Virus record (IMG/VR): IMGVR_UViG_3300022936_000011
Span: 1-47,391 of that record
Source of the DNA: a virus
Lineage: Duplodnaviria; Caudoviricetes
Length of the DNA stretch: 47,391 nt
Strand: one strand, 5' to 3'
A program made the position numbers and the translations under genes. Position 1 is the first letter of the stretch, and each line of letters starts with the position of its first letter. The notes beneath the pieces are model-generated. The model saw nothing but the letters and a program-made list of their open reading frames with translations, did not search any database and was not told the DNA's origin. This document shows, in pieces, positions 4,300 to 40,733 of the stretch.

Positions 4300-5673
4300 A
4301 TGATCGAGTTCATCCAGAAAATGGGTTTTATGGGCGACGACGGTGAAACCCCGACGCCACCGCTACCGGATCCTACGACTGTAAACTTCACCGCTGCGCA
4401 ATTCTCCCCCGGCCTCACTGGCTCCGTCAGCACCACAAAAAACGCAGCCCGCATCTACATGCGCGGCGCGGTAAGTCTGTGGTCCGGCTTTATTTCAGGC
4501 ACTGAAGCGAAACTGACTTCGCCGTCAGACTTTGGCGATCAGCCAGGATCTATGCAGGTTGCTATTAACGGTGGGGTTTTCACGCTGGCGCCCAATACCG
4601 GATCGGTTTACACGCTATTCACCGGTCTGCCGCACGCTACACGGTTCGTCGAGGTCCGCTATGACCCGCAAATGGCCGACGCGCCTTACGTTGCTTCCTC
4701 CGGCAACGTGCTCGAAGTGACCGGACAACCACCAACCCTGGCAACGCTTTCGAACAAAGTTCAGAACGGTGCGAACAGCACAACAGGTTTCTATTCCGGC
4801 GCGCAGGTAGCCAACGCCGCGACGTACACCCCGCCCATGCAAGCCCAGAAGGGCCAGAACTACGGCTCCAACATCGGCTCAATCAAGATTCGCGGCGCGT
4901 TCACGAAACTGGCCGTAACGGTCAACGGCTCGCGCAAAATCGCGGTAAGCAAGAATGGTGCAGCCCCGAGCTTCTACACGGTAGCAGACGAGACCGATAA
5001 CCCGATTCGGGCGATGCTGGTTCCGTGTGACGGTTCCACAGCCACTTACTACGTGTGGGACGACGGCAACGGTCGGAACAACAACGGGCACTTCGCGGTG
5101 GCCGGCGACTCGACCTTGCTAGACGTAGGTACCCGCCGCCGGATGGAGCAATACGGCGACTCAATCACCTTCGGTTCCGGGCCTAATGCCACATCGCGCG
5201 ACACTGAAACGATGCGAGTAGCGGCCGCCATGGGCTTTGTCGGTAGCACCAGCGGCGTAAGCGGCTTAACGATCGGCGGGCTTAACACACTCCTCGATAC
5301 CGTTCTACCAGCGCGCACCGTTGCTTCTACGGACGTGGCGATCCTGGCGATCGGGGGCAACAGCGCGGCCGGAGGCATTGATCCAGCGGAGCAGGCTGAA
5401 TATGCGTCGTGCATCGACAAGCTGATCGCCAAGGGCTATGGCAAAGTATTGTGCCGCGGCATCTTGCCGAACGTAGCCGCGCAACCACTGGTCGATGCGG
5501 CTAACATAACTCTGAAAAGTGTCATGGACGGCAAAGCGGACGCTAAACTGGTTTGGATCGACCCGACCACTTGGGCTTTCTCCACCGACGACGGCACTCA
5601 TCCAAACGCTGCAGGCTACGCAACTCTTGCCGGGTATGCCGTACCGGCTTATTCCGCTGCGCTAGGCTTGTGA
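4300..5673 (+). CDS. SGNH/GDSL hydrolase domain protein, probably virion-associated
   Basis: C-terminal SGNH blocks YGDSIT, GVSG, IGGNS, DGTHPN; beta-rich N-terminal region. Confidence 0.85.
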   Translation: MIEFIQKMGFMGDDGETPTPPLPDPTTVNFTAAQFSPGLTGSVSTTKNAARIYMRGAVSLWSGFISGTEAKLTSPSDFGDQPGSMQVAINGGVFTLAPNTGSVYTLFTGLPHATRFVEVRYDPQMADAPYVASSGNVLEVTGQPPTLATLSNKVQNGANSTTGFYSGAQVANAATYTPPMQAQKGQNYGSNIGSIKIRGAFTKLAVTVNGSRKIAVSKNGAAPSFYTVADETDNPIRAMLVPCDGSTATYYVWDDGNGRNNNGHFAVAGDSTLLDVGTRRRMEQYGDSITFGSGPNATSRDTETMRVAAAMGFVGSTSGVSGLTIGGLNTLLDTVLPARTVASTDVAILAIGGNSAAGGIDPAEQAEYASCIDKLIAKGYGKVLCRGILPNVAAQPLVDAANITLKSVMDGKADAKLVWIDPTTWAFSTDDGTHPNAAGYATLAGYAVPAYSAALGL

Positions 5674-5704: not shown

Positions 5705-5989
5705 ATGGCCAAAGTCGAATTCATTTACAGCAAAGGCGGGAAGCGAGTTCCTATGGCTCTGCGTTATGCGGAAACCCTTCGCAAGTTGGGCCACGGCACT
5801 TACGAAACTCGTACGCTTACCGCCGGGGCGCCCGCTGCAGTTGTAGCGGAACCGCTGGTATCTGACGCGATCGCCGAGTTCGCTGCCGAAAACAATGTCG
5901 ACCTGTCGAAAGTCGTTGGTACCGGCAAAGACGGACGTATCCGCAAGTCGGATGTGGAAGCCGCTATTGACGCCCAGGATCTCGCATAA
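5705..5989 (+). CDS. small protein with C-terminal E3-binding (peripheral subunit-binding) domain
   Basis: AENNVDLSKVVGTGKDGRIRKSDVEA matches the PSBD pattern DL..V.GTG..GRI.K.DV of 2-oxoacid dehydrogenase E2 chains. Confidence 0.8.
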   Translation: MAKVEFIYSKGGKRVPMALRYAETLRKLGHGTYETRTLTAGAPAAVVAEPLVSDAIAEFAAENNVDLSKVVGTGKDGRIRKSDVEAAIDAQDLA

Positions 5990-7368
5990 TGCGCTTGTTC
6001 GGCTTTGACATCTCGCGGAAGACCTCGGCTGTCACGGTCGAGAAAACGCTGTCTAATGTTCCCGTTTCGCGCGGCTGGTGGCCGCTTGTTCGCGAGCCAT
6101 TCACAGGCGCCTGGCAACGTAATAAAGAACAACGCTTGGATACCTTGCTGAACTATCCGGCGTTGTACGCCTGTATCAATCGGATCGCATCTGATATCGG
6201 CAAGTTGCCTTTTAGCCTAAAATCCCGGAACGCGAAAGGCATCTGGTCCGAGATTGACAGCCCGGCGTTTTCCCCCGTGCTGCGCAAGCCGAACCATTAC
6301 CAGACCGGCCAGCAGTTCCGCGAATATTGGGCGTTGTCCAGGCTTACCCAAGGCAACGTGTACGTGCTCAAGGAGCGCGACAACCGCGGCGTCGTCGTCG
6401 GTATGTACATCCTCGACCCGTGCCGTGTTATGCCTCTCGTGTCGGACAGCGGCGAAGTGTTCTATCAGCTCTACACCGACAACCTGAATTTGCTTCCCGA
6501 CGGCTTTAACGAACTGGTCGTGCCGGCTTCTGAGATCATCCACGATCGCTGCATCTGCCCCTTCCATCCGTTGATCGGACTGCCACCGATTGCCGCGGCG
6601 TACCTGCCGACCCTGAAGAACATGCGGATCTTGAAGTCCTCCGCGGAGTTCTTCGGCAACAACGCGCAGCCGTCCGGCATCTTGTCAGCCCCCGGCGCGA
6701 TCAGTGACGAGACAGCTAAGCGTTTGTCCGACCACTGGAACACCAATTTCACCGGCGAGAATTCCGGCAAGGTCGCGGTTGTCGGCGATGGCCTGGCGTT
6801 TGTTGCCCTAGGTAGCAAGTCCGTAGACGCCCAAATGGTCGAGCAGCTCCGCTACTCCGATGAGCAGATCTGCCAGCCGTTCGGCATCCCACCGTTCAAG
6901 ATCGGCTTGGGCACAATCCCGTCCGGCCTCGGCGTGGACGCGATCAACCAGCTCTACTACGACGATGCGCTCCAATCGCCTATCCAGGCTATGGAAACGC
7001 TGCTGACCGAAGGGTTGAACGCCATGCCGTATAAAGTCGACATGGACGAAACGGTTCTCATGCGCATGGACGCCGGCAAGAAGGCTGACTACCATAAAAC
7101 GCTTATCGACGGTAGCATCGAGACGATCAACGAGGGTCGACTGGACTTCAACCTGCCACCTCTTGACGGTGGCGATACGGTCTATAAACAACAGCAGGAC
7201 TTCCCTCTCAGCGTCATCAAGGATAACGTTCTGCCAACGCCAAATGCCGCGCCAGCTATTGAAGCGCCCGTAGCCGATCCAGTGGTCGATGACCAAACAC
7301 AAAAGGCCCTAGCAGAATTGTTTCTGCTTAAAGCAGTTCAGGCCGCACGAATTGAGGTTACCCGATGA
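5989..7368 (+). CDS. portal protein, HK97 family
   Basis: ACINRIASDIGKLP, LRKPNHYQT, GNVYV, EIIHDR, FFGNNAQPSGIL, FGIPP, TINEGR. Confidence 0.95.
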   Translation: MRLFGFDISRKTSAVTVEKTLSNVPVSRGWWPLVREPFTGAWQRNKEQRLDTLLNYPALYACINRIASDIGKLPFSLKSRNAKGIWSEIDSPAFSPVLRKPNHYQTGQQFREYWALSRLTQGNVYVLKERDNRGVVVGMYILDPCRVMPLVSDSGEVFYQLYTDNLNLLPDGFNELVVPASEIIHDRCICPFHPLIGLPPIAAAYLPTLKNMRILKSSAEFFGNNAQPSGILSAPGAISDETAKRLSDHWNTNFTGENSGKVAVVGDGLAFVALGSKSVDAQMVEQLRYSDEQICQPFGIPPFKIGLGTIPSGLGVDAINQLYYDDALQSPIQAMETLLTEGLNAMPYKVDMDETVLMRMDAGKKADYHKTLIDGSIETINEGRLDFNLPPLDGGDTVYKQQQDFPLSVIKDNVLPTPNAAPAIEAPVADPVVDDQTQKALAELFLLKAVQAARIEVTR

Positions 7369-8198
7369 TCGACCCGGTAGAGTTCGGCAAGGCCATGGGC
7401 GCCTTGGTAAAAGAATCGACGGCGCCCCTGCTCGAGCGAATCGACCAGCTGGAAAAGCAGCTGTCGGAGATCCACATTTTTACCGCCGAGGATGCCGCTT
7501 CGCTAGTTGACGTCGAAGCATTGGCGAAGTCCGCTGCCGCGCTTGTACCGAAGGCCGAAGACGGCAAGTCGATCACCGTTGAAGACGTACGACCCCTGGT
7601 CGACGAACTGGTCTCTAAAGCCGTAGCCGCGTTGCCGGCGCCGGAGAAGGGAAAGGACGCCGACATGGATGTGCTCAAATCGCACGTCGGTGAACTGGTG
7701 AAAACAATCCAGCCCGCCACACCTTTGCCAGTGCCATCGGTCGAGGAGATCGCGGGTACGTTCGAGCGTCGTTTCTCCGACTTGACACTATCGTGGGAAC
7801 GCCAGGCGCGAGACACCTTCGAGAAGGCCGCCGACCGTATGCCGAAACCGAAGGACGGCCAAGACGCTTTGTCGCTAGAGAACTTCGACATGGTGATCGG
7901 CGACGATGGCCGCACGGTAACCGTGAAGATGCAGGCCGGTGAAACCGTGATCGAGAAGTCGGTGAAGATCGCCGCTGTCATTGATCGCGATATTTTCAAG
8001 TCGGACGGCGCCTACGAGAAAGGCGACGGCGTGTCTTACGGCGGCAGCTTCTGGATTGCCAAGTGCGATGCTCCTAAAGGCGTCCCGGGCAGTGGCGAGA
8101 CAGATTGGCGCTGCGCTGTGAAGAAAGGCCGTGATGGTAAAGACCTGCGCGACAACGCCAGCACTGTCGACCCTACCAAGGGAGTGTCGATCAAATGA
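7365..8198 (+). CDS. portal-adjacent head morphogenesis protein
   Basis: Coupled to portal; GKD-type repeats and C-terminal YEKGDGVSYGGSFW...WRCAVKKGRDGKD. Confidence 0.55.
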   Translation: MIDPVEFGKAMGALVKESTAPLLERIDQLEKQLSEIHIFTAEDAASLVDVEALAKSAAALVPKAEDGKSITVEDVRPLVDELVSKAVAALPAPEKGKDADMDVLKSHVGELVKTIQPATPLPVPSVEEIAGTFERRFSDLTLSWERQARDTFEKAADRMPKPKDGQDALSLENFDMVIGDDGRTVTVKMQAGETVIEKSVKIAAVIDRDIFKSDGAYEKGDGVSYGGSFWIAKCDAPKGVPGSGETDWRCAVKKGRDGKDLRDNASTVDPTKGVSIK

Positions 8199-9616: not shown

Positions 9617-9832
9617 ATGGATGGTTCGGTAATAGCTAAGCAAATTTGGGCCTCCAGTCGATCGGGCATACGGTTCGAAGTACAAGCCGTAGGCCGTCAT
9701 GCGCAAGATTGCAGTTGGCCTATGGTGGTTTACACGAATTTAGAACCTACGGAAGACGCACCCGCGGGAACAACATGGGTTCTCGATGAGCTGATATTTA
9801 TAAAACGCATGATACTCGTAGAAAACTCGTGA
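9617..9832 (+). CDS. small hypothetical protein (DUF1653-like)
   Basis: G.RFEV.AVGRH...MVVY...TWV.....F pattern. Confidence 0.5.
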   Translation: MDGSVIAKQIWASSRSGIRFEVQAVGRHAQDCSWPMVVYTNLEPTEDAPAGTTWVLDELIFIKRMILVENS

Positions 9833-10380
9833 AAACCTTCGTCTGCATCGCCTCCGGCCCAAGCCTAAACGCGCGCGACTGCGAACTCGTCCGGCTGTCA
9901 GGACTCCCCACAATCACCGTGAACAATTCCTGGCAGCTAGCCGCCTGGTGCGATCACCTTTACGCAGGTGATCTCGCGTGGTGGGATGCGAACGTCTCCC
10001 AAGTGCCAGATGGCCCTAAGCGATGGACGTGTACCCGCCAGGCGTCGGCGAAGTACGCTTTGAACCTGCACACCGCTTACGGCGAATATAACAGCGGATT
10101 ACGGGCAATCGAACTGGCCTTCCAGCTAGGCGCGGAACGCGTCTTGCTTCTTGGGTATGACTGCACGGTGCAAGGAGGTACGCACTGGCACGGCGACCAC
10201 AGCGACACAAAAAACCCGGACGAAGCGTTGTGTAGGAAATGGAATCAGCAGCATTGCCGTTTGCAGCAGCGCGATAAGGTCGTGAACTGCTCGCGTGAAA
10301 CGGCCTTGGAATGCTACCGGCTCGGACATCTCGAAAAAGAGTTGCAAAAGGTTGTTGACACTTGTGATGTGCGCGACTAA
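9829..10380 (+). CDS. putative glycosyltransferase-like protein (DUF115/MptE/sialyltransferase-like fold)
   Basis: CIASGPSL, TVNNSW, DHLYAGD, NSGLRAIELAFQLGAERVLLLGYD motifs. Confidence 0.65.
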   Translation: MKTFVCIASGPSLNARDCELVRLSGLPTITVNNSWQLAAWCDHLYAGDLAWWDANVSQVPDGPKRWTCTRQASAKYALNLHTAYGEYNSGLRAIELAFQLGAERVLLLGYDCTVQGGTHWHGDHSDTKNPDEALCRKWNQQHCRLQQRDKVVNCSRETALECYRLGHLEKELQKVVDTCDVRD

Positions 10381-10383
10381 AGT
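10355..10383 (+). promoter_or_regulatory. sigma70 promoter for the non-coding unit
   Basis: TTGACA-17 nt-TAAAGT. Confidence 0.75.
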
Positions 10384-10389
10384 TCGTTT

Positions 10390-10834
10390 TAGCAGGCGGA
10401 ATTGAAGCTGCAGCATTAGATAGGGCCTGCCGCAAACGTCCCGTATGACGTGACAGATCGGAGAGACGATCGCGCTACTAGAGCAGACTGTGGGCCAACT
10501 CGTTAAAAATGCGCCCACTTAGAATTCTGATCAACCAACGCCACTGATGCGGAAGTCGGCAGCCTTAACCGGTATAAGTTTCCGATGTACCGCCAGCTCG
10601 CACATGCGGAATAGTTGCACCAAGGAAATGCACGGGTAAGCTTAGCGGTCTAAAGCTACCGGAAACGGTGATCACTCGTTCGAATCGTGGACCGTGTATT
10701 TCCTTGGTGCAATTACGAGTCGTAGACTCAGGCTTAAATGCGAGAGGCGGCAAGCGAAGGCCAAACCGCTGTGATTGCACCTTATATTTCTCCTGTGCTG
10801 CCCTCCTCAACCCGTCGAAAGGCGGGTTCTTTTT
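10390..10834 (+). ncRNA. putative structured non-coding RNA with a tRNA-like domain
   Basis: ORF-poor ~440 nt between a promoter and a terminator; serial hairpins; 24-bp stem enclosing D-arm and T-arm motifs. Confidence 0.65.
10809..10834 (+). terminator. intrinsic terminator
   Basis: aacccgtc-GAAA-ggcgggtt-cttttt. Confidence 0.85.
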
Positions 10835-10849
10835 AACCGGAGCTTGATA

Positions 10850-11104
10850 ATGCGACGCAAGCAGAAAGTCCCCCCGCTGATTAGTGAATGCTACCCACTG
10901 ATTTTCTGGAAAAATTGTTGTGCTTGCAATTACCAATTTAGAAGGGAGCGGGGATGGCAGAAAATCGCTACTGATATCGCTTTCGAGCCTTTCCGGTATC
11001 TATGCGCTTCGTGCGCACCAGACGAAAGAACCGCAGCAGAAATTTTTAGTTCTAGGCCTTGGCGAGTTCCAATGCCAAAGGTCGCGCCGCCGAGGAAGCC
11101 TTAA
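10850..11104 (+). CDS. small Cys-rich (CxxC..CxxC) hypothetical protein
   Basis: ATG 10850 after GGAG; CCAC and CASC; stop overlaps next start. Confidence 0.55.
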   Translation: MRRKQKVPPLISECYPLIFWKNCCACNYQFRRERGWQKIATDIAFEPFRYLCASCAPDERTAAEIFSSRPWRVPMPKVAPPRKP

Positions 11105-11934
11105 TGATCATCCATGGAATGCGGGGCCTCGGCGACAACCTGTACCAGCGCGCCTTCATCAAAGCGCTGCCCAAACCGCTTTACATCGACACACCCTGGC
11201 CGGAAATTTACCAAGACATTCCCGGTGTCCATTTCCTCCGCCCGCAGACCAATCTGCGCACCCAAGCGAAGAACATCGCGCGCCACGCAACCTGGACGAT
11301 GCCGCCCACGCGTCAACCGACTCGACAGATCCGCTACGGCACCGAGGGAATTATTCCCGGGATGATTGCCAGCTTCGGCGTAATGCCTGGCGAGTTCGAC
11401 CTACCGCCGCTGCCACCTTCGCCCGAGACCGGCCCTTACGTTGTCGTGCGGCCGGCTACGGTACGTAGCGAGTGGCGCGCCGATACGCGTAACCCTACCC
11501 CCGAATATATCTATGCTGCCGCACAGGAAGCGGCGTTGCGAGGGTATAGAGTTATTAGCGTGGCGGACATAGACGACGTGAAAGAATGGTCTGTAGGCTG
11601 CTTGCCGCCCGCCGACGTGCGGTATCACAAAGGCGAACTGCCAGTCGAACAACTACTGGCCCTCGTCAAGGGTGCTGCTGCCGTGATCGGCGGTATCGGC
11701 TGGCTGGTGCCTGCTGCGCTAGCGGCCAAGGTTCCCGCGTGGATCATCTGCGGCGGCCAGGGCGGTTTCAATTCGCCGAAGCAGATCTGCCCGGACGGAA
11801 GTACAATTACCTTTGCGGTGCCGGACAACTTTTGCCGGTGCAAACTCAAGCAGCACAACTGCGACAAGAGGATTTCCAACTATGACGCCAAGCTTACCGA
11901 GTGGGCTGACCGACACCTTTTTATGGTCCCCTGA
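11104..11934 (+). CDS. glycosyltransferase family 9-like (GT-B) protein
   Basis: N-terminal GMRGLGDNL; LLALVKGAAAVIGGIGW..PAALA.KVP typical of heptosyltransferase-like C-domain. Confidence 0.7.
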   Translation: MIIHGMRGLGDNLYQRAFIKALPKPLYIDTPWPEIYQDIPGVHFLRPQTNLRTQAKNIARHATWTMPPTRQPTRQIRYGTEGIIPGMIASFGVMPGEFDLPPLPPSPETGPYVVVRPATVRSEWRADTRNPTPEYIYAAAQEAALRGYRVISVADIDDVKEWSVGCLPPADVRYHKGELPVEQLLALVKGAAAVIGGIGWLVPAALAAKVPAWIICGGQGGFNSPKQICPDGSTITFAVPDNFCRCKLKQHNCDKRISNYDAKLTEWADRHLFMVP

Positions 11935-12502
11935 GAAAGGTCAGGGTTTCCATACTCGGCCAGCGATGCTGTACGGCGGCGAGTATTTCGCTAACTACCA
12001 AAAGCTCGACGCTACCAAGATGGGCGGCCTGCTGACCAAAGCGCGGGTGGAACTGGTAAAGAAGTACATCAACCCGGCTGAAGTCGTGGACATTGGTATC
12101 GGCGGCGGCCGCTTCGTCGAGGAGTCCCAGGGCTGCGGGTATGACGTTTGCCCGGACGCGATCTCCTGGCTGCAAAGCATCTACGCGTATAAAGACCCAT
12201 ACGGCTCTGAAGAGGTTCGGGCGATTACATGCTGGGATAGCCTCGAGCACATCCCAGAACCTGAAAAGCTTCTGGAGCGCGTCAAGGAATGGCTGTTCGT
12301 CTCAATCCCGATCTGCGAGACGGCCAGTGAGTGGGTAGAGTCAAAGCACATGAAGCCCGGCGAGCACATCCACTACTTCAGTCTCCAGGGCTTTATCCGT
12401 TGGTGCGGTATCCACGGCTTCGAGTGCGTCGAAGTGAACTGGGCGGAAACCGAACTTGGCCGTGAAGGCATCGCGTCCTTTGCGTTTAAACGATTATCCT
12501 GA
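11882..12502 (+). CDS. class I SAM-dependent methyltransferase
   Basis: VVDIGIGGG motif I, GYDV, WDSLEHIPEP, EHIHYFS. Confidence 0.85.
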   Translation: MTPSLPSGLTDTFLWSPEKGQGFHTRPAMLYGGEYFANYQKLDATKMGGLLTKARVELVKKYINPAEVVDIGIGGGRFVEESQGCGYDVCPDAISWLQSIYAYKDPYGSEEVRAITCWDSLEHIPEPEKLLERVKEWLFVSIPICETASEWVESKHMKPGEHIHYFSLQGFIRWCGIHGFECVEVNWAETELGREGIASFAFKRLS

Positions 12503-31733: not shown

Positions 31734-31762
31734 AGCTTATGCAAGATTCGACTTGTAGTCAA
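31734..31762 (-). promoter_or_regulatory. sigma70 promoter with palindromic operator
   Basis: TTGACT-17-TAAGCT with TACAA-N8-TTGCA in spacer. Confidence 0.7.
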
Positions 31763-32754
31763 CCTTTCCGGTAGCGATAGGCTTCGAAGCCGGCTGCGGC
31801 GAGCGGTAAGCCTTCTGTCCAGTCGCAACCAGCGGACATCAGTTCGGCCAGGTGTTCGTGGTTATAAGATGGATCGTCCGGCGCTTCGCTGATGATCTCA
31901 TCGTGGACGGTCAGCACGATTTCGTAACCGGCGGATTCTATAGGTTTCATAGAGTGGGCGAGGACGTCGCGTGCCGCTGCTTGGCACATATTTTCACAAA
32001 GTTTCCCAGAATATGTGCGTAACCTCTCCCATTTTCGGGAATATTGATTGATACCCATGAAGGTTATTTGCCCGTCGTCCTCTACCCGCGGCGACGGATA
32101 GCAGAGATATCGGCCGCTTGGGAGCATTACACGAAGCCACGCGCCATCGCGCCGGATCTTGTGACGGCGGCAGGAGAAGGTCTGCCCGGGATTGTTGATC
32201 GCCGTTCTGCAGCTATTTTCGATATCCTTCCAGTACGTCGAGGTGTTCGGGTGCGCTTCACGCCAGAGGCGCTTAAAGCTGTCGCACACGATAAAAGCTT
32301 TGTCCGACAGCCCGAACTGGCTTTTGCCCTGGCCGAGTTGCCATTCCAGGAAGCTAGACGCTTCGTCTAGGGTATTTTTCGGGATCGCGTCAATCGCGCG
32401 TTCGGCCATCGCTTCCAGGTCAATGTTGAACGCGAGCGAGAAAGTGATGAACGCTCCCACCCCTCCGGCATATCCGAGCGCCAGTTCCATCGTCTTGCCG
32501 ATCTGCCGCATGTCCTTGTCGACGTCAGCCGGGTCGATGCCGAACGCTTTGGCGTAGGCCAATTTGTAGAGGTCGAAGCCATTACCCGCGTCGAAGTCTC
32601 GGAACGCCTGGAGCTTCCATTCCTCGCCGGCTAGCCATGCGAGCACTCGACCTTCAATATTACTGAGGTCGGCGATAACGAACTTTTTGCCCTTCGGTGC
32701 GATGAACACTCCGCGCACGGCGCTAGAGCATTTTTCCATCACTGTCGCGCTCAT
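31759..32754 (-). CDS. family A DNA polymerase, C-terminal (catalytic) fragment
   Basis: Motif A ADLSNIEGR, motif B RQIGKTMELALGY, motif C TVHDEI. Confidence 0.92.
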   Translation of the reverse strand: MSATVMEKCSSAVRGVFIAPKGKKFVIADLSNIEGRVLAWLAGEEWKLQAFRDFDAGNGFDLYKLAYAKAFGIDPADVDKDMRQIGKTMELALGYAGGVGAFITFSLAFNIDLEAMAERAIDAIPKNTLDEASSFLEWQLGQGKSQFGLSDKAFIVCDSFKRLWREAHPNTSTYWKDIENSCRTAINNPGQTFSCRRHKIRRDGAWLRVMLPSGRYLCYPSPRVEDDGQITFMGINQYSRKWERLRTYSGKLCENMCQAAARDVLAHSMKPIESAGYEIVLTVHDEIISEAPDDPSYNHEHLAELMSAGCDWTEGLPLAAAGFEAYRYRKG

Positions 32755-33272
32755 ACGAGATCCGCCGTGAGGTCGTCGAGATATAGGAAATTCGCCCTGA
32801 TGTACCTATGACTGTGCCGAGCTAATTTTGCCGCTTGTGCGATTGAGTCGTACTTGACTCCGGTTCGGGGGTCTACCATGGGTAGGGCTTGCTTGTTCAG
32901 ACGATGCGCCACGGCGTGGTAATGATTCCCGCTGCGGGTAACCCATTCTAGGTTCGAAGCCCGGTTATTGAGCTTAACGCCGTCTTTATGGTTCACCTCA
33001 GCCGTCTCGGAAAAACCATCGCAAAAAGCTTGCGCCACCAGGCGGTGGACGGTACAAGCTTTTCTCTTGTCCCCCGTACAAAGATGCACAAGTTCATACC
33101 CGCTATTCTGAATTTGTGTAGCGAGAATTTTCTCCGGCGTGAGGCGCATGCCCTCCTTCCCGGAGATCCAGTGGACGAAGCGCTTCATGGCAGCCACGGC
33201 GCGTACTCGCCCTGTGTCACTTACCTCGTAGCGATCGTTGTACCCGGGTATCAGTTTCCAGCGTTCTGTCAT
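32751..33272 (-). CDS. NUMOD4-HNH homing endonuclease
   Basis: WKLIPGY..RYEVSDTGRVR; VHRLVA, VNHKDG.KLNN..SNLEW.T.S.N..H. Confidence 0.92.
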   Translation of the reverse strand: MTERWKLIPGYNDRYEVSDTGRVRAVAAMKRFVHWISGKEGMRLTPEKILATQIQNSGYELVHLCTGDKRKACTVHRLVAQAFCDGFSETAEVNHKDGVKLNNRASNLEWVTRSGNHYHAVAHRLNKQALPMVDPRTGVKYDSIAQAAKLARHSHRYIRANFLYLDDLTADLV

Positions 33273-34339
33273 AGTAAATCCTCGGCATCCGCCAATAGTT
33301 CTTCGATAGCCCTATCTACCCCCTCCGGCGAAAGCGTACTGCGGCTGAGGTTCTGAGGTTGTAGTAGTCTACCCGCCCACCGGCCCGTGCGCAACGCGCC
33401 GCAGAACGCAAGAAGCCCCCGCAGCCTGCCGTCGGCGCTGACACCGTTCAGAACGCGTTTGTACTTCGATACTGAGGTCTTCGAACTTTGCAACCGCACG
33501 GCCAGGAGTTCGCGCAACTCCACCGGCAAATCGGGATCGTCGATGCGCCGCTCCAAGGTACTGATCTGAAGGTCAGGCAGGCCCACACCGTAAGCCTCAA
33601 GGATGTGCTCGAGCATCTTGTCGCGCTGGTTGGCACTGGTCACGGCGCCATCGGTTAAACGCACTGCATCGGCGGCGTGGATCTTCTGCGCTCGATCCGA
33701 AGCGCGGATCGCGGCATGCGCCAAGTCGAGATCCATCAGCACGCCGCGTTCGTTGATCTTCTGGTCAAGCATCCACAGTTCGCGTTCGGCTCCACGGTAG
33801 TTCCAGCGCGGCAGCTTCTTATAGATCTCCCTCATAGCCTCAATGTCCAAACCTCCATAGTCTCGGAATCGTTGCCATTCGACGGGGTGGGTTGCTTTGG
33901 TGGCGCGGCGGATCTTTCGACCTTTTGGTTGGGGCTTGCAGAAGAGAGAGATCCACGTTCTGCCTTCTTTGTCTTTGGCTTTGTCAGTAGCAACGCCGAG
34001 AATCGAGCAGAGTGTACCAAGCGAGCCAGGGAGAGAATGCGCCATGGCACAAACCATCGTGTCGAAAACCCTTTCGACGCGCAGATCAATACCAGAGTGT
34101 GACATGACGGTTCGGTCAAAAGCCGAGTTGTGTATAACCACTTCATAACTTTCATCCTCAAGCAAAGCGAGCAAGTCGCTAATATCTTCATCCCCATCGC
34201 GAATAATCACTTCCCCATCGCCGACCGCCCACTGCCACATGATGATCTCGGCGCCTTCTGCATAACGGTGCGTCCCGTTGTTGATCGGCGTTTCGCAGAA
34301 GGTTTCCGTGTCGAGGAAAACGCATTTAGATAGATCCAT
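33269..34339 (-). CDS. family A DNA polymerase, N-terminal (3'-5' exonuclease/thumb) fragment
   Basis: FLDTET, HNSAFDR, YGGLDIE, DQKINERG, TGRWAG..LQPQNL. Confidence 0.92.
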   Translation of the reverse strand: MDLSKCVFLDTETFCETPINNGTHRYAEGAEIIMWQWAVGDGEVIIRDGDEDISDLLALLEDESYEVVIHNSAFDRTVMSHSGIDLRVERVFDTMVCAMAHSLPGSLGTLCSILGVATDKAKDKEGRTWISLFCKPQPKGRKIRRATKATHPVEWQRFRDYGGLDIEAMREIYKKLPRWNYRGAERELWMLDQKINERGVLMDLDLAHAAIRASDRAQKIHAADAVRLTDGAVTSANQRDKMLEHILEAYGVGLPDLQISTLERRIDDPDLPVELRELLAVRLQSSKTSVSKYKRVLNGVSADGRLRGLLAFCGALRTGRWAGRLLQPQNLSRSTLSPEGVDRAIEELLADAEDLL

Positions 34340-34826
34340 TGGCTTTCTTCTTTCTCCTGAATTCTGGTAAGGCGCCACCGCCGATCTCGTAAACACGTTC
34401 CCAGCTCGGCCAGTTCAACGTCAGGTCGCCACGCTTTTGAGGGATCGGATGAATGCGTGGGCGCCCCGGGTGCTTGGAGTTCATTTCGACGAAAATACCG
34501 CGGTGCTCGGCAGCCCTCTTGAGTTCGTGGCCCGCTGAGTATCCGATAGTCCTGGCAGCGTACGCCCAGCTTCGCCGCTCCTTCGCCATTCGCTCTAAGG
34601 CTTCGCGCAGGTTCTCCCCAGTATCTTTCAGGTACGCAAGTGCCCGTGATGACGGCTCGAAAGGATCTTTGCTAGGGTGACGGGAAAGGAGGTGGCAAAA
34701 GCCTTGAGGTGAGTATCCCAACGCCCTGGCCGTATCGAACCGGTTAAGACCCTGGTCAGCAAAATCGGCTACCAGTTGCCAGAACTCGACACCCCATCGC
34801 GCTTCTACTAACCGTACCCCTGTCAC
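34326..34826 (-). CDS. hypothetical protein with two HTH-like repeats
   Basis: TARALGYS and AARTIGYS segments. Confidence 0.55.
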   Translation of the reverse strand: MTGVRLVEARWGVEFWQLVADFADQGLNRFDTARALGYSPQGFCHLLSRHPSKDPFEPSSRALAYLKDTGENLREALERMAKERRSWAYAARTIGYSAGHELKRAAEHRGIFVEMNSKHPGRPRIHPIPQKRGDLTLNWPSWERVYEIGGGALPEFRRKKKANGSI

Positions 34827-40448: not shown

Positions 40449-40733
40449 CTATTCCGTTTCTTTTATCAGTTCAGTACGCAGGATGAGCACGTCACGCGGC
40501 GCGGTGAAATTCAGCTTTGCATGGCCTTTGGCGAGGTCAACGACGCAAACACTTACCCCCTCTGCAATTTGCATGGAGTCGCGGAACCGGACTCGTTCTA
40601 CCTGGAGGGTGGACAGCAAACGGAATTTGCAGAAGCCGCCGGTCACATCGAGGATCTCGACGTATTCCGTTTTGTCGCCAATCAGAAGGCGAACGGACTG
40701 GCCGGCTTTACGGGTCAACACGAGATTGGTCAT
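40449..40733 (-). CDS. CsrA/RsmA-like protein with internal duplication
   Basis: LVLTRKAGQSV..IGD at N-terminus and F.APRDV.ILR.EL at C-terminus, with a second DSMQIAEGVSV.V unit. Confidence 0.75.
   Translation of the reverse strand: MTNLVLTRKAGQSVRLLIGDKTEYVEILDVTGGFCKFRLLSTLQVERVRFRDSMQIAEGVSVCVVDLAKGHAKLNFTAPRDVLILRTELIKETE

Follow-up and report, generated by a model that had tools for sequence, protein, structure and literature searches.

A hypervariable cassette of putative small-RNA modules at the junction of two glycosyltransferase-like genes in siphophage-like viruses

The window (the whole stretch of 47,391 nt that was analysed, a 47 kb virus record with siphophage-like gene order) carries a promoter-to-terminator unit at positions 10355 to 10834, which very probably is a modular cassette of structured RNA elements. 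Judged from the sequence comparisons, it is nearly an even chance that this hypervariable cassette is transcribed from a host sigma70 promoter as a precursor of about 445 nt and is cut into small RNAs that would replace or decoy tRNAs against host defences. An earlier note on this DNA had described the region as a self-contained, structured, non-coding transcription unit. The non-coding, structured unit reaching from promoter to terminator is well supported by conservation and covariation. The reading as one single ncRNA is unsupported, since phages exchange the parts independently of one another, and the second option of the note, a precursor of several small RNAs, would fit best.

The unit is flanked upstream by GT1 (9829..10380, + strand), a sialyltransferase-like gene (PHROG 4603) related to P1 PmgO and P7 HdmB, the last codons of which overlap the promoter. 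Downstream lies the putative glycosyltransferase gene GT2 (11104..11934, + strand; PHROG 6804), whose homologues are annotated as GT9/GTB-type glycosyltransferases, followed by a methyltransferase gene. GT1, GT2 and the methyltransferase gene (9829-12502) appear to be a virion-modification set that is common to PAJU2, D3, and P1/P7. In PAJU2 and IME307 GT1 and GT2 directly abut, so this junction can be regarded as the empty state of the cassette site. In the window the terminator and GT2 are separated by an 84-aa ORF (10850..11104, + strand), which is Cys-rich and has no family match. It occupies a second variable, protein-coding slot 3' of the terminator, in which either HNH-like genes or ORFs of roughly 40-85 aa are found, the latter unrelated to one another and equipped with strong ribosome-binding sites. 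Elsewhere in the window, the DNA polymerase is split into two pieces by an HNH gene (31759-34396), a portal-like match is spread over two ORFs (5989-8198), and an ORF with a GDSL-hydrolase domain is situated 3' of the capsid gene (4300-5673). The nearest cultured proteins are those of Pseudomonas phages; since the closest cultured terminase is just 61% identical, Pseudomonas is only the likely host, and no cultured close relative was found. Neither an integrase nor an RNA polymerase was matched among the 69 ORFs scanned against PHROGs, and the lack of a phage RNA polymerase among these ORFs speaks for transcription by the host polymerase.

The promoter, the stems, and the terminator named in the earlier note were all found in place. 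The sigma70-type promoter TTGACA-17-TAAAGT lies on the + strand at 10355..10383 (TTGACA starts at 10355, TAAAGT ends at 10383) with a predicted start near 10390-10391, and the intrinsic terminator comprises 10809..10834 (+ strand; terminator match at 10809-10828). Taken alone, such matches occur at chance level in 11 kb (4 promoter-like matches found, 4.0 expected; 8 terminator-like matches found, 12 expected), and the weight of promoter and terminator therefore rests on their conservation. The -35 box and the terminator served as selection criteria for collecting related cassettes, but the -10 box did not: its A2 and T6 are kept in 45/45 cassettes at fixed spacing with 22 different spacers. 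The unit also fills what had been called the largest ORF-free gap of the late arm, which is correct among the selected late-arm ORFs (10381-10849, 469 nt; the next largest gap has 65 nt).

The stems could be confirmed as 10392-97/10425-30, 10436-40/10447-51, 10456-60/10467-71, 10490-95/10513-18, 10570-76/10586-92, 10717-21/10725-29, and the 24-bp stem 10612-35/10692-715. The region as a whole folds with a z score of -4.0 against 100 dinucleotide shuffles and of -5.0 against mononucleotide shuffles, for which 18 other 450-nt windows gave -3.1 to +2.3. This signal originates in 10612-10715 (z -7.5) and 10706-10785 (z -5.0), but 10391-10481 (z -1.1) and 10540-10612 (z -0.3) fold like shuffles, and the first hairpin (10392-10430) has a pair probability of about zero in the whole-transcript ensemble. 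The list of hairpins moreover omitted a tRNA-like cloverleaf borne by the 24-bp stem, a pair of pseudoknots, and the alternative pairing of three elements A, B, and C. The suggestion that G-U pairs favour the + strand is a weak argument: in the window the + strand has -162.9 and the - strand -157.5 kcal/mol, the + strand is the better one in only 16/45 cassettes, and a strand call from folding energy was dropped as uninformative. We take the + orientation from promoter and terminator, together with the tRNAs that relatives encode on the + strand, and not from the G-U pairs.

Relatives were collected by a GT1 search (46 viral loci, 77-94% identity), a GT2 search (109 loci, 80 kept), and a promoter-pattern search (29 metagenome loci). 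Duplicates, three self copies, and 7 loci without terminator call were left out; five of the latter end within 250 nt of the promoter, and L040 and L080 are one contig with a variant terminator. The resulting set consists of 45 distinct cassettes of 148-687 nt including the window, a number that overstates independence because some cassettes are near-copies. All are situated at the GT1/GT2 junction. They have the sigma70-type promoter, the terminator, and short linkers in common and differ in their contents, which comprise true tRNAs, tRNA-like RNAs, hammerhead-type cores, and pseudoknots with compensatory changes. At least five distinct close relatives (L012, L039, L041, L051, L058) are without cassette and have an HNH-like gene there instead. 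A conserved G-rich motif of about 50 nt, maybe another structured RNA, precedes the HNH-like gene; it is found right after GT1 in these five loci and after the terminator in L007, L021, and L145.

In the window the cassette starts with a weakly supported 5' hairpin module (10392..10430, + strand), whose loop sequence is common to L003 and L042. It is followed by a three-way junction with a GAGAGA-loop hairpin (10431..10475, + strand). The stem of this hairpin is maintained by other base pairs in L003, L042, L173, and L174, the last two of which were found by pattern alone. The next module is an H-type pseudoknot, PK1 (10481..10518, + strand), with S1 at 10481-83/10499-501, S2 at 10490-95/10513-18, and an A-rich loop 3, so that the 10490/10513 stem makes up half of this pseudoknot. 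In the window S1 has only 3 bp. The PK1 family has 13 members. In nine relatives, with the subgroup of the window left out, 99% of the cells are paired and 5/12 pairs show a two-sided change; 0/500 shuffles reach this value and slid controls gave 24-55%. A model built without the window found 10475-10521 as sole match in the 47 kb (17 bits, E 0.03), and a scan with the exact PK1 pattern gave no match. Another family of compact H-type pseudoknots, which also shows compensatory changes, was observed in 12/40 tree cassettes directly before the terminator (e.g. L001, L003, L021).

Downstream of PK1 an AU-rich site and a conserved CA-rich linker are located (10522..10542, + strand; CA-rich linker in 35/45 cassettes). 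A slot B module (10543..10596, + strand), for which no homologue was found, and a conserved small hairpin linker (10598..10609, + strand; 24/45) separate it from slot C (10612..10715, + strand), where the 24-bp carrier stem bears a tRNA-like head. All these linkers are single copy in the genome of the window. Elements A (10613-22) and B (10705-14) form the base of the carrier stem, and A, B, and C co-occur in the same 19/45 cassettes. The A:B stem has 17-26 bp with a median of 22. Its outer 10 bp are paired in 17/17 distinct arm pairs; the inner 10 positions are widely variable, with a mean of 8.8 paired versus 5.3 for mismatched arms from different phages. Compensatory changes are seen in both PK1 and the carrier stem. 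At a 70% cut the 19 carrier stems hold 14 unrelated cargo types and the slot between B and C holds 13. In the window this slot D (10706..10781, + strand) is closed by the B:C stem (C at 10774-81) and contains a hairpin and a predicted pseudoknot, PK2, with stems 10731-35/10758-62 and 10746-50/10766-70. PK2 is 100% paired in four sequences and shows 2 two-sided changes; the evidence is weak, as 17/500 shuffles reach it.

Exchange of modules is indicated by an independent contig, which comes from two runs of one study and is probably DNA. It shares the promoter and 10613-10714 with the window, the latter with 1 difference in 102 nt. The shared segment starts at A and ends at B, other sequences take the place of the stretches on either side, and GT2 differs at 28 of 172 nt. 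Similarly, L144 is 95% identical to the window over 10705-10813 and only 81% in GT1. PK2 occupies slot D in the window, L034, and L144, and lies beside the promoter in L021, L026, and L145. On a GT1 tree of 40/45 rows, in which only 9/37 branches are well supported, the 5 rows with PK2 require 4 changes (mean of shuffles 4.7) and module labels do not cluster. Ends of shared segments lie within 6 nt of a linker in 129/201 cases versus 48 ± 6 at random, an enrichment that is partly circular because the linkers were picked by eye from the same data. An antisense role was considered and rejected, as the only second matches in the genome are the stem's own arms and the linkers are single copy.

The cargo of the carrier stem in the window is a putative anticodon-less tRNA mimic (10636..10691, + strand). 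A D arm occupies 10640-56 and a T arm 10672-90, the latter with a canonical loop and a stem bulged by 2 nt; between the two arms lies a GAAA hairpin of 4 bp (10658-69). The cloverleaf arises unprompted in the minimum-energy fold; the head alone folds like shuffles (z +0.3) and the probability of the T stem is only 0.44. With canonical tRNA (RF00005) and the tmRNA domain (RF00023) it has in common the paired D and T arms and the invariant loop bases (D-loop AG..GG..A, T-loop TTCGAAT). It differs from both by its 12-nt GAAA hairpin in place of a 17-nt anticodon arm with 5-bp stem and 7-nt loop, by the bulged T stem, by the absence of CCA 3' of the T arm, where the stem continues to 24 bp unless processing sets other ends, and by the lack of G3-U70; the only G-U near the head is the seventh pair out, and RF00023 gave no hit. 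Neither RF00005 nor ARAGORN gave a call or score on the head, and a scan with its exact pattern found no match. The D-arm/T-arm pattern, which was written after inspecting the head, occurs in 1/5000 shuffles and nowhere else in the genome. It is present in 11/45 cassettes (6 of them tRNA-Trp) versus 0 in 20 shuffled sets. T-loop hairpins are found in 5/19 slot C cargos and are absent from 14/19, and tRNA mimicry can therefore not account for the whole cassette. L015, L016, and L181 were considered as further anticodon-less mimics; they also fit a tRNA-Phe(GAA) with C33 and are not counted as clean ones. GAAA-capped tRNA-like RNAs were also seen around position 600 in L178 and L181, which are other viral contigs; ARAGORN gave no call for the former and Phe for the latter.

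Among the related loci scanned, Rfam tRNA hits above cut-off were obtained in 10/40, and at a relaxed threshold ARAGORN named tRNAs for Trp, Gln, Gly, Met, Asp, and Ser, among others. Hammerhead cores below the Rfam cut-offs are present in L001 and L017. At L001:3834-3878, L017:3552-3599, and L176:2001-2167 a type I hammerhead was seen whose stems differ and which precedes a conserved module of about 120 nt. The hammerhead-associated module also precedes tRNA-Met in Pectobacterium phage Pappous, where it is annotated as hypothetical protein, and the tRNA cluster of phage TPWB-08 has a match in part of L083; from these two matches we infer that the modules come from a pool common to other phage tRNA regions. 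In slot A of L001, L010, and L033 and in slot D of L009 and L030 we observed a module that has two T-arm hairpins, and tRNA-like RNAs whose anticodon loop contains an inserted hairpin. The occurrence of true tRNAs and tRNA-like RNAs in the same cassette of relatives lends circumstantial support to the suggestion of the earlier note that the RNA could act as a decoy.

RNase E cleaves at AU-rich sites and RNase III cuts stems of two helical turns. In the reading that we prefer, the host sigma70 RNA polymerase would transcribe the unit from about 10391 to 10834, the AU-rich linkers would be cut by an RNase E-type enzyme, and the two-turn carrier stem by an RNase III-type enzyme. The cut in the carrier stem would release the cargo and free B, and B:C would then close the next module. 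Such processing into separate folded RNAs is somewhat probable. Modules would be exchanged by recombination at the linkers of 9-12 nt, and the AU-rich site with the CA-rich linker at 10522..10542 is likely to be a point of both cleavage and recombination. The released tRNA elbow might bind host proteins that recognise tRNA, for example defence nucleases or sensors, and would lack both an anticodon loop that could be cut and a CCA that could be charged. The turnover of modules would then follow from changes in the host defences. For a counter-defence role of the cassette RNAs we see a chance just short of even.

RNA anti-CRISPRs are solitary repeat units; no CRISPR-DR family was found at E<=10 over 10200-11100. 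The Rfam cmscan proposed in the earlier note returned no family at cut-off on the window and only chance hits at E<=10. BLASTN of the unit against 50,697 phage records and a search of 185,579 prokaryote genomes with the exact pattern of the A linker gave no match. No account of a linker-delimited RNA cassette or an A/B/C carrier was found in the literature covered, which was mostly open access. A catalogue of 10,006 candidate viral RNAs, mostly from IMG/VR, is described in the available part of PMC10690425; two motifs and two dataset ids had no match in six of its supplement files, and single modules may already be listed in its other files.

The closest precedent of the cassette is the tRNA region of T4 and T5, likewise a phage locus with tRNAs plus small RNAs of unexplained role. 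According to the accessible parts of the sources, the T4 region yields RNAC and RNAD, whose role is unexplained (PMC3014915, PMC9697503), and the tRNA-rich region of T5 is dispensable and holds counter-defence tRNAs (PMC3014915, PMC9697503, PMC11464382, bioRxiv 2023.03.15.532788). In contrast to T4 and T5, the genome here has 47 kb, the unit 150-700 nt, most versions lack a tRNA, and the exchange of modules takes place within a constant frame of linkers and carrier stem. tRNA genes like those of the T4/T5 regions are absent from the unit of the window and present in 10/40 related loci. Phage tRNAs neutralise PARIS and retron Ec78, in the available text by supplying a resistant functional tRNA and not by decoys (PMC11464382; bioRxiv 2023.03.15.532788). 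By its sequence features, the cassette appears to be an undescribed modular RNA locus of the phage tRNA-region type whose scaffold could not be matched to any known system.

We considered several alternatives to the processed, tRNA-decoying precursor. Ordinary tRNA supply, in which the locus would be a small cluster of phage tRNAs, with the remaining modules, including the head, as processing signals or stabilising clamps, is rather improbable. It is in agreement with the true tRNAs of the ten loci, with the hammerhead cores of L001 and L017 and the position of their module just upstream of tRNA-Met in Pappous, and with theta ribozymes, which are proposed in the available part of PMC10879173 to process phage tRNAs. 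Theta ribozymes are likewise small ribozyme-type RNAs beside phage tRNA genes, but the relatives here carry hammerhead cores and no ribozyme was recognised in the window, including a hammerhead CUGANGA/GAAA core with three stems. Against ordinary tRNA supply, the window is without any tRNA gene (no RF00005 hit across the whole genome), 30/40 loci are without Rfam tRNA hit, 14 cargos on one scaffold exceed the needs of a cut signal, and the acceptor end of the head is sealed inside the 24-bp stem.

The pseudoknots and junctions could also be a library of sponges or aptamers that bind CsrA/RsmA, Hfq, Ro60, or small immune-signal nucleotides, a reading that we regard as improbable. The pseudoknots are compact with invariant loop bases, and the phage encodes a CsrA-family protein (40449-40733), but GGA, which a CsrB/RsmZ-type sponge would have many times in its loops, occurs 7 times in 449 nt, the level expected by chance, and no Rfam riboswitch or Rsm match was obtained. 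The long stem with tRNA-like head resembles the layout of the D. radiodurans Y RNA Yrn1; in the accessible part of PMC4201824 the Y RNAs YrlA and Yrn1 have a long terminal stem with a tRNA-like D/T domain, and the model of Yrn1 places a short anticodon-like arm between D and T. In contrast to these Y RNAs, the stem lacks the Ro60-binding motif GNCGAAN0-1G expected close to the 5' end, the sole GNCGAA being in the terminator loop (10814-19), and the head has neither the T-AS-D order of YrlA nor an Rfam hit. TROVE/Ro60, whose gene would be expected within 4 kb of a Y RNA, was not matched among the phage ORFs scanned.

Quite improbable is a cis-acting switch in which A:B versus B:C, or the whole nascent RNA, tunes terminator read-through into GT2, the methyltransferase, and tail genes. 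The terminator sits within the structural operon, and B can pair with A or C, which are mutually exclusive (predicted probability of A:B 1.0 in the full RNA; of B:C 0.998 in a 3' fragment starting at 10701). However, 26/45 cassettes do without A/B/C and have the terminator unchanged, C does not overlap the terminator, which pairs with a probability of 1.0 in the full RNA, and the cargos are unrelated.

It is highly improbable that the cassette is neutral or selfish RNA debris at an insertion hotspot, even though the junction also takes HNH-like genes and unrelated small ORFs and some relatives are without cassette; compensatory changes, the fixed spacer length, the fixed -10 bases, the ordered slots, and near-identical modules in phages about 20% diverged argue against it. 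A translated small ORF can hardly account for the region: + strand ORFs of 26-59 codons exist, and in a few relatives (slot A of L002, L009, L034, L035) micro-ORFs of 4-17 codons with a ribosome-binding site were seen by eye, but the cassette of the window has no SD-plus-start and no supported ORF, as the earlier note had held, the longest ORFs across the 45 cassettes are shorter than in shuffles (median 36 versus 38-50 codons), and the overlapping ORFs scanned, minus-strand ones included, match no family.

The modular cassette of putative processed RNAs would in itself be a natural library of dozens of covarying RNA folds of about 40-140 nt each in one standard frame, which could easily be expressed and tested against defences, and the carrier stem may serve as a ready scaffold for stable RNA display. 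The locus is also relevant to T4 RNAC and RNAD, RNAs of a phage tRNA region which have been unexplained for decades. A further-reaching reading, which for the present seems somewhat unlikely, is a plug-and-play RNA expression system in which promoter, linkers, and A/B/C carrier are fixed and are turned into stable products by host nucleases, tRNA decoys and aptamer-like RNAs rotate, and the elbow acts as an uncleavable inhibitor of immunity directed at tRNA. If true, such a cassette would correspond at the RNA level to a hotspot of anti-defence proteins. Should the anticodon-less mimic protect the phage, tRNA-based counter-defence would extend from supplying tRNA to decoying the attackers.
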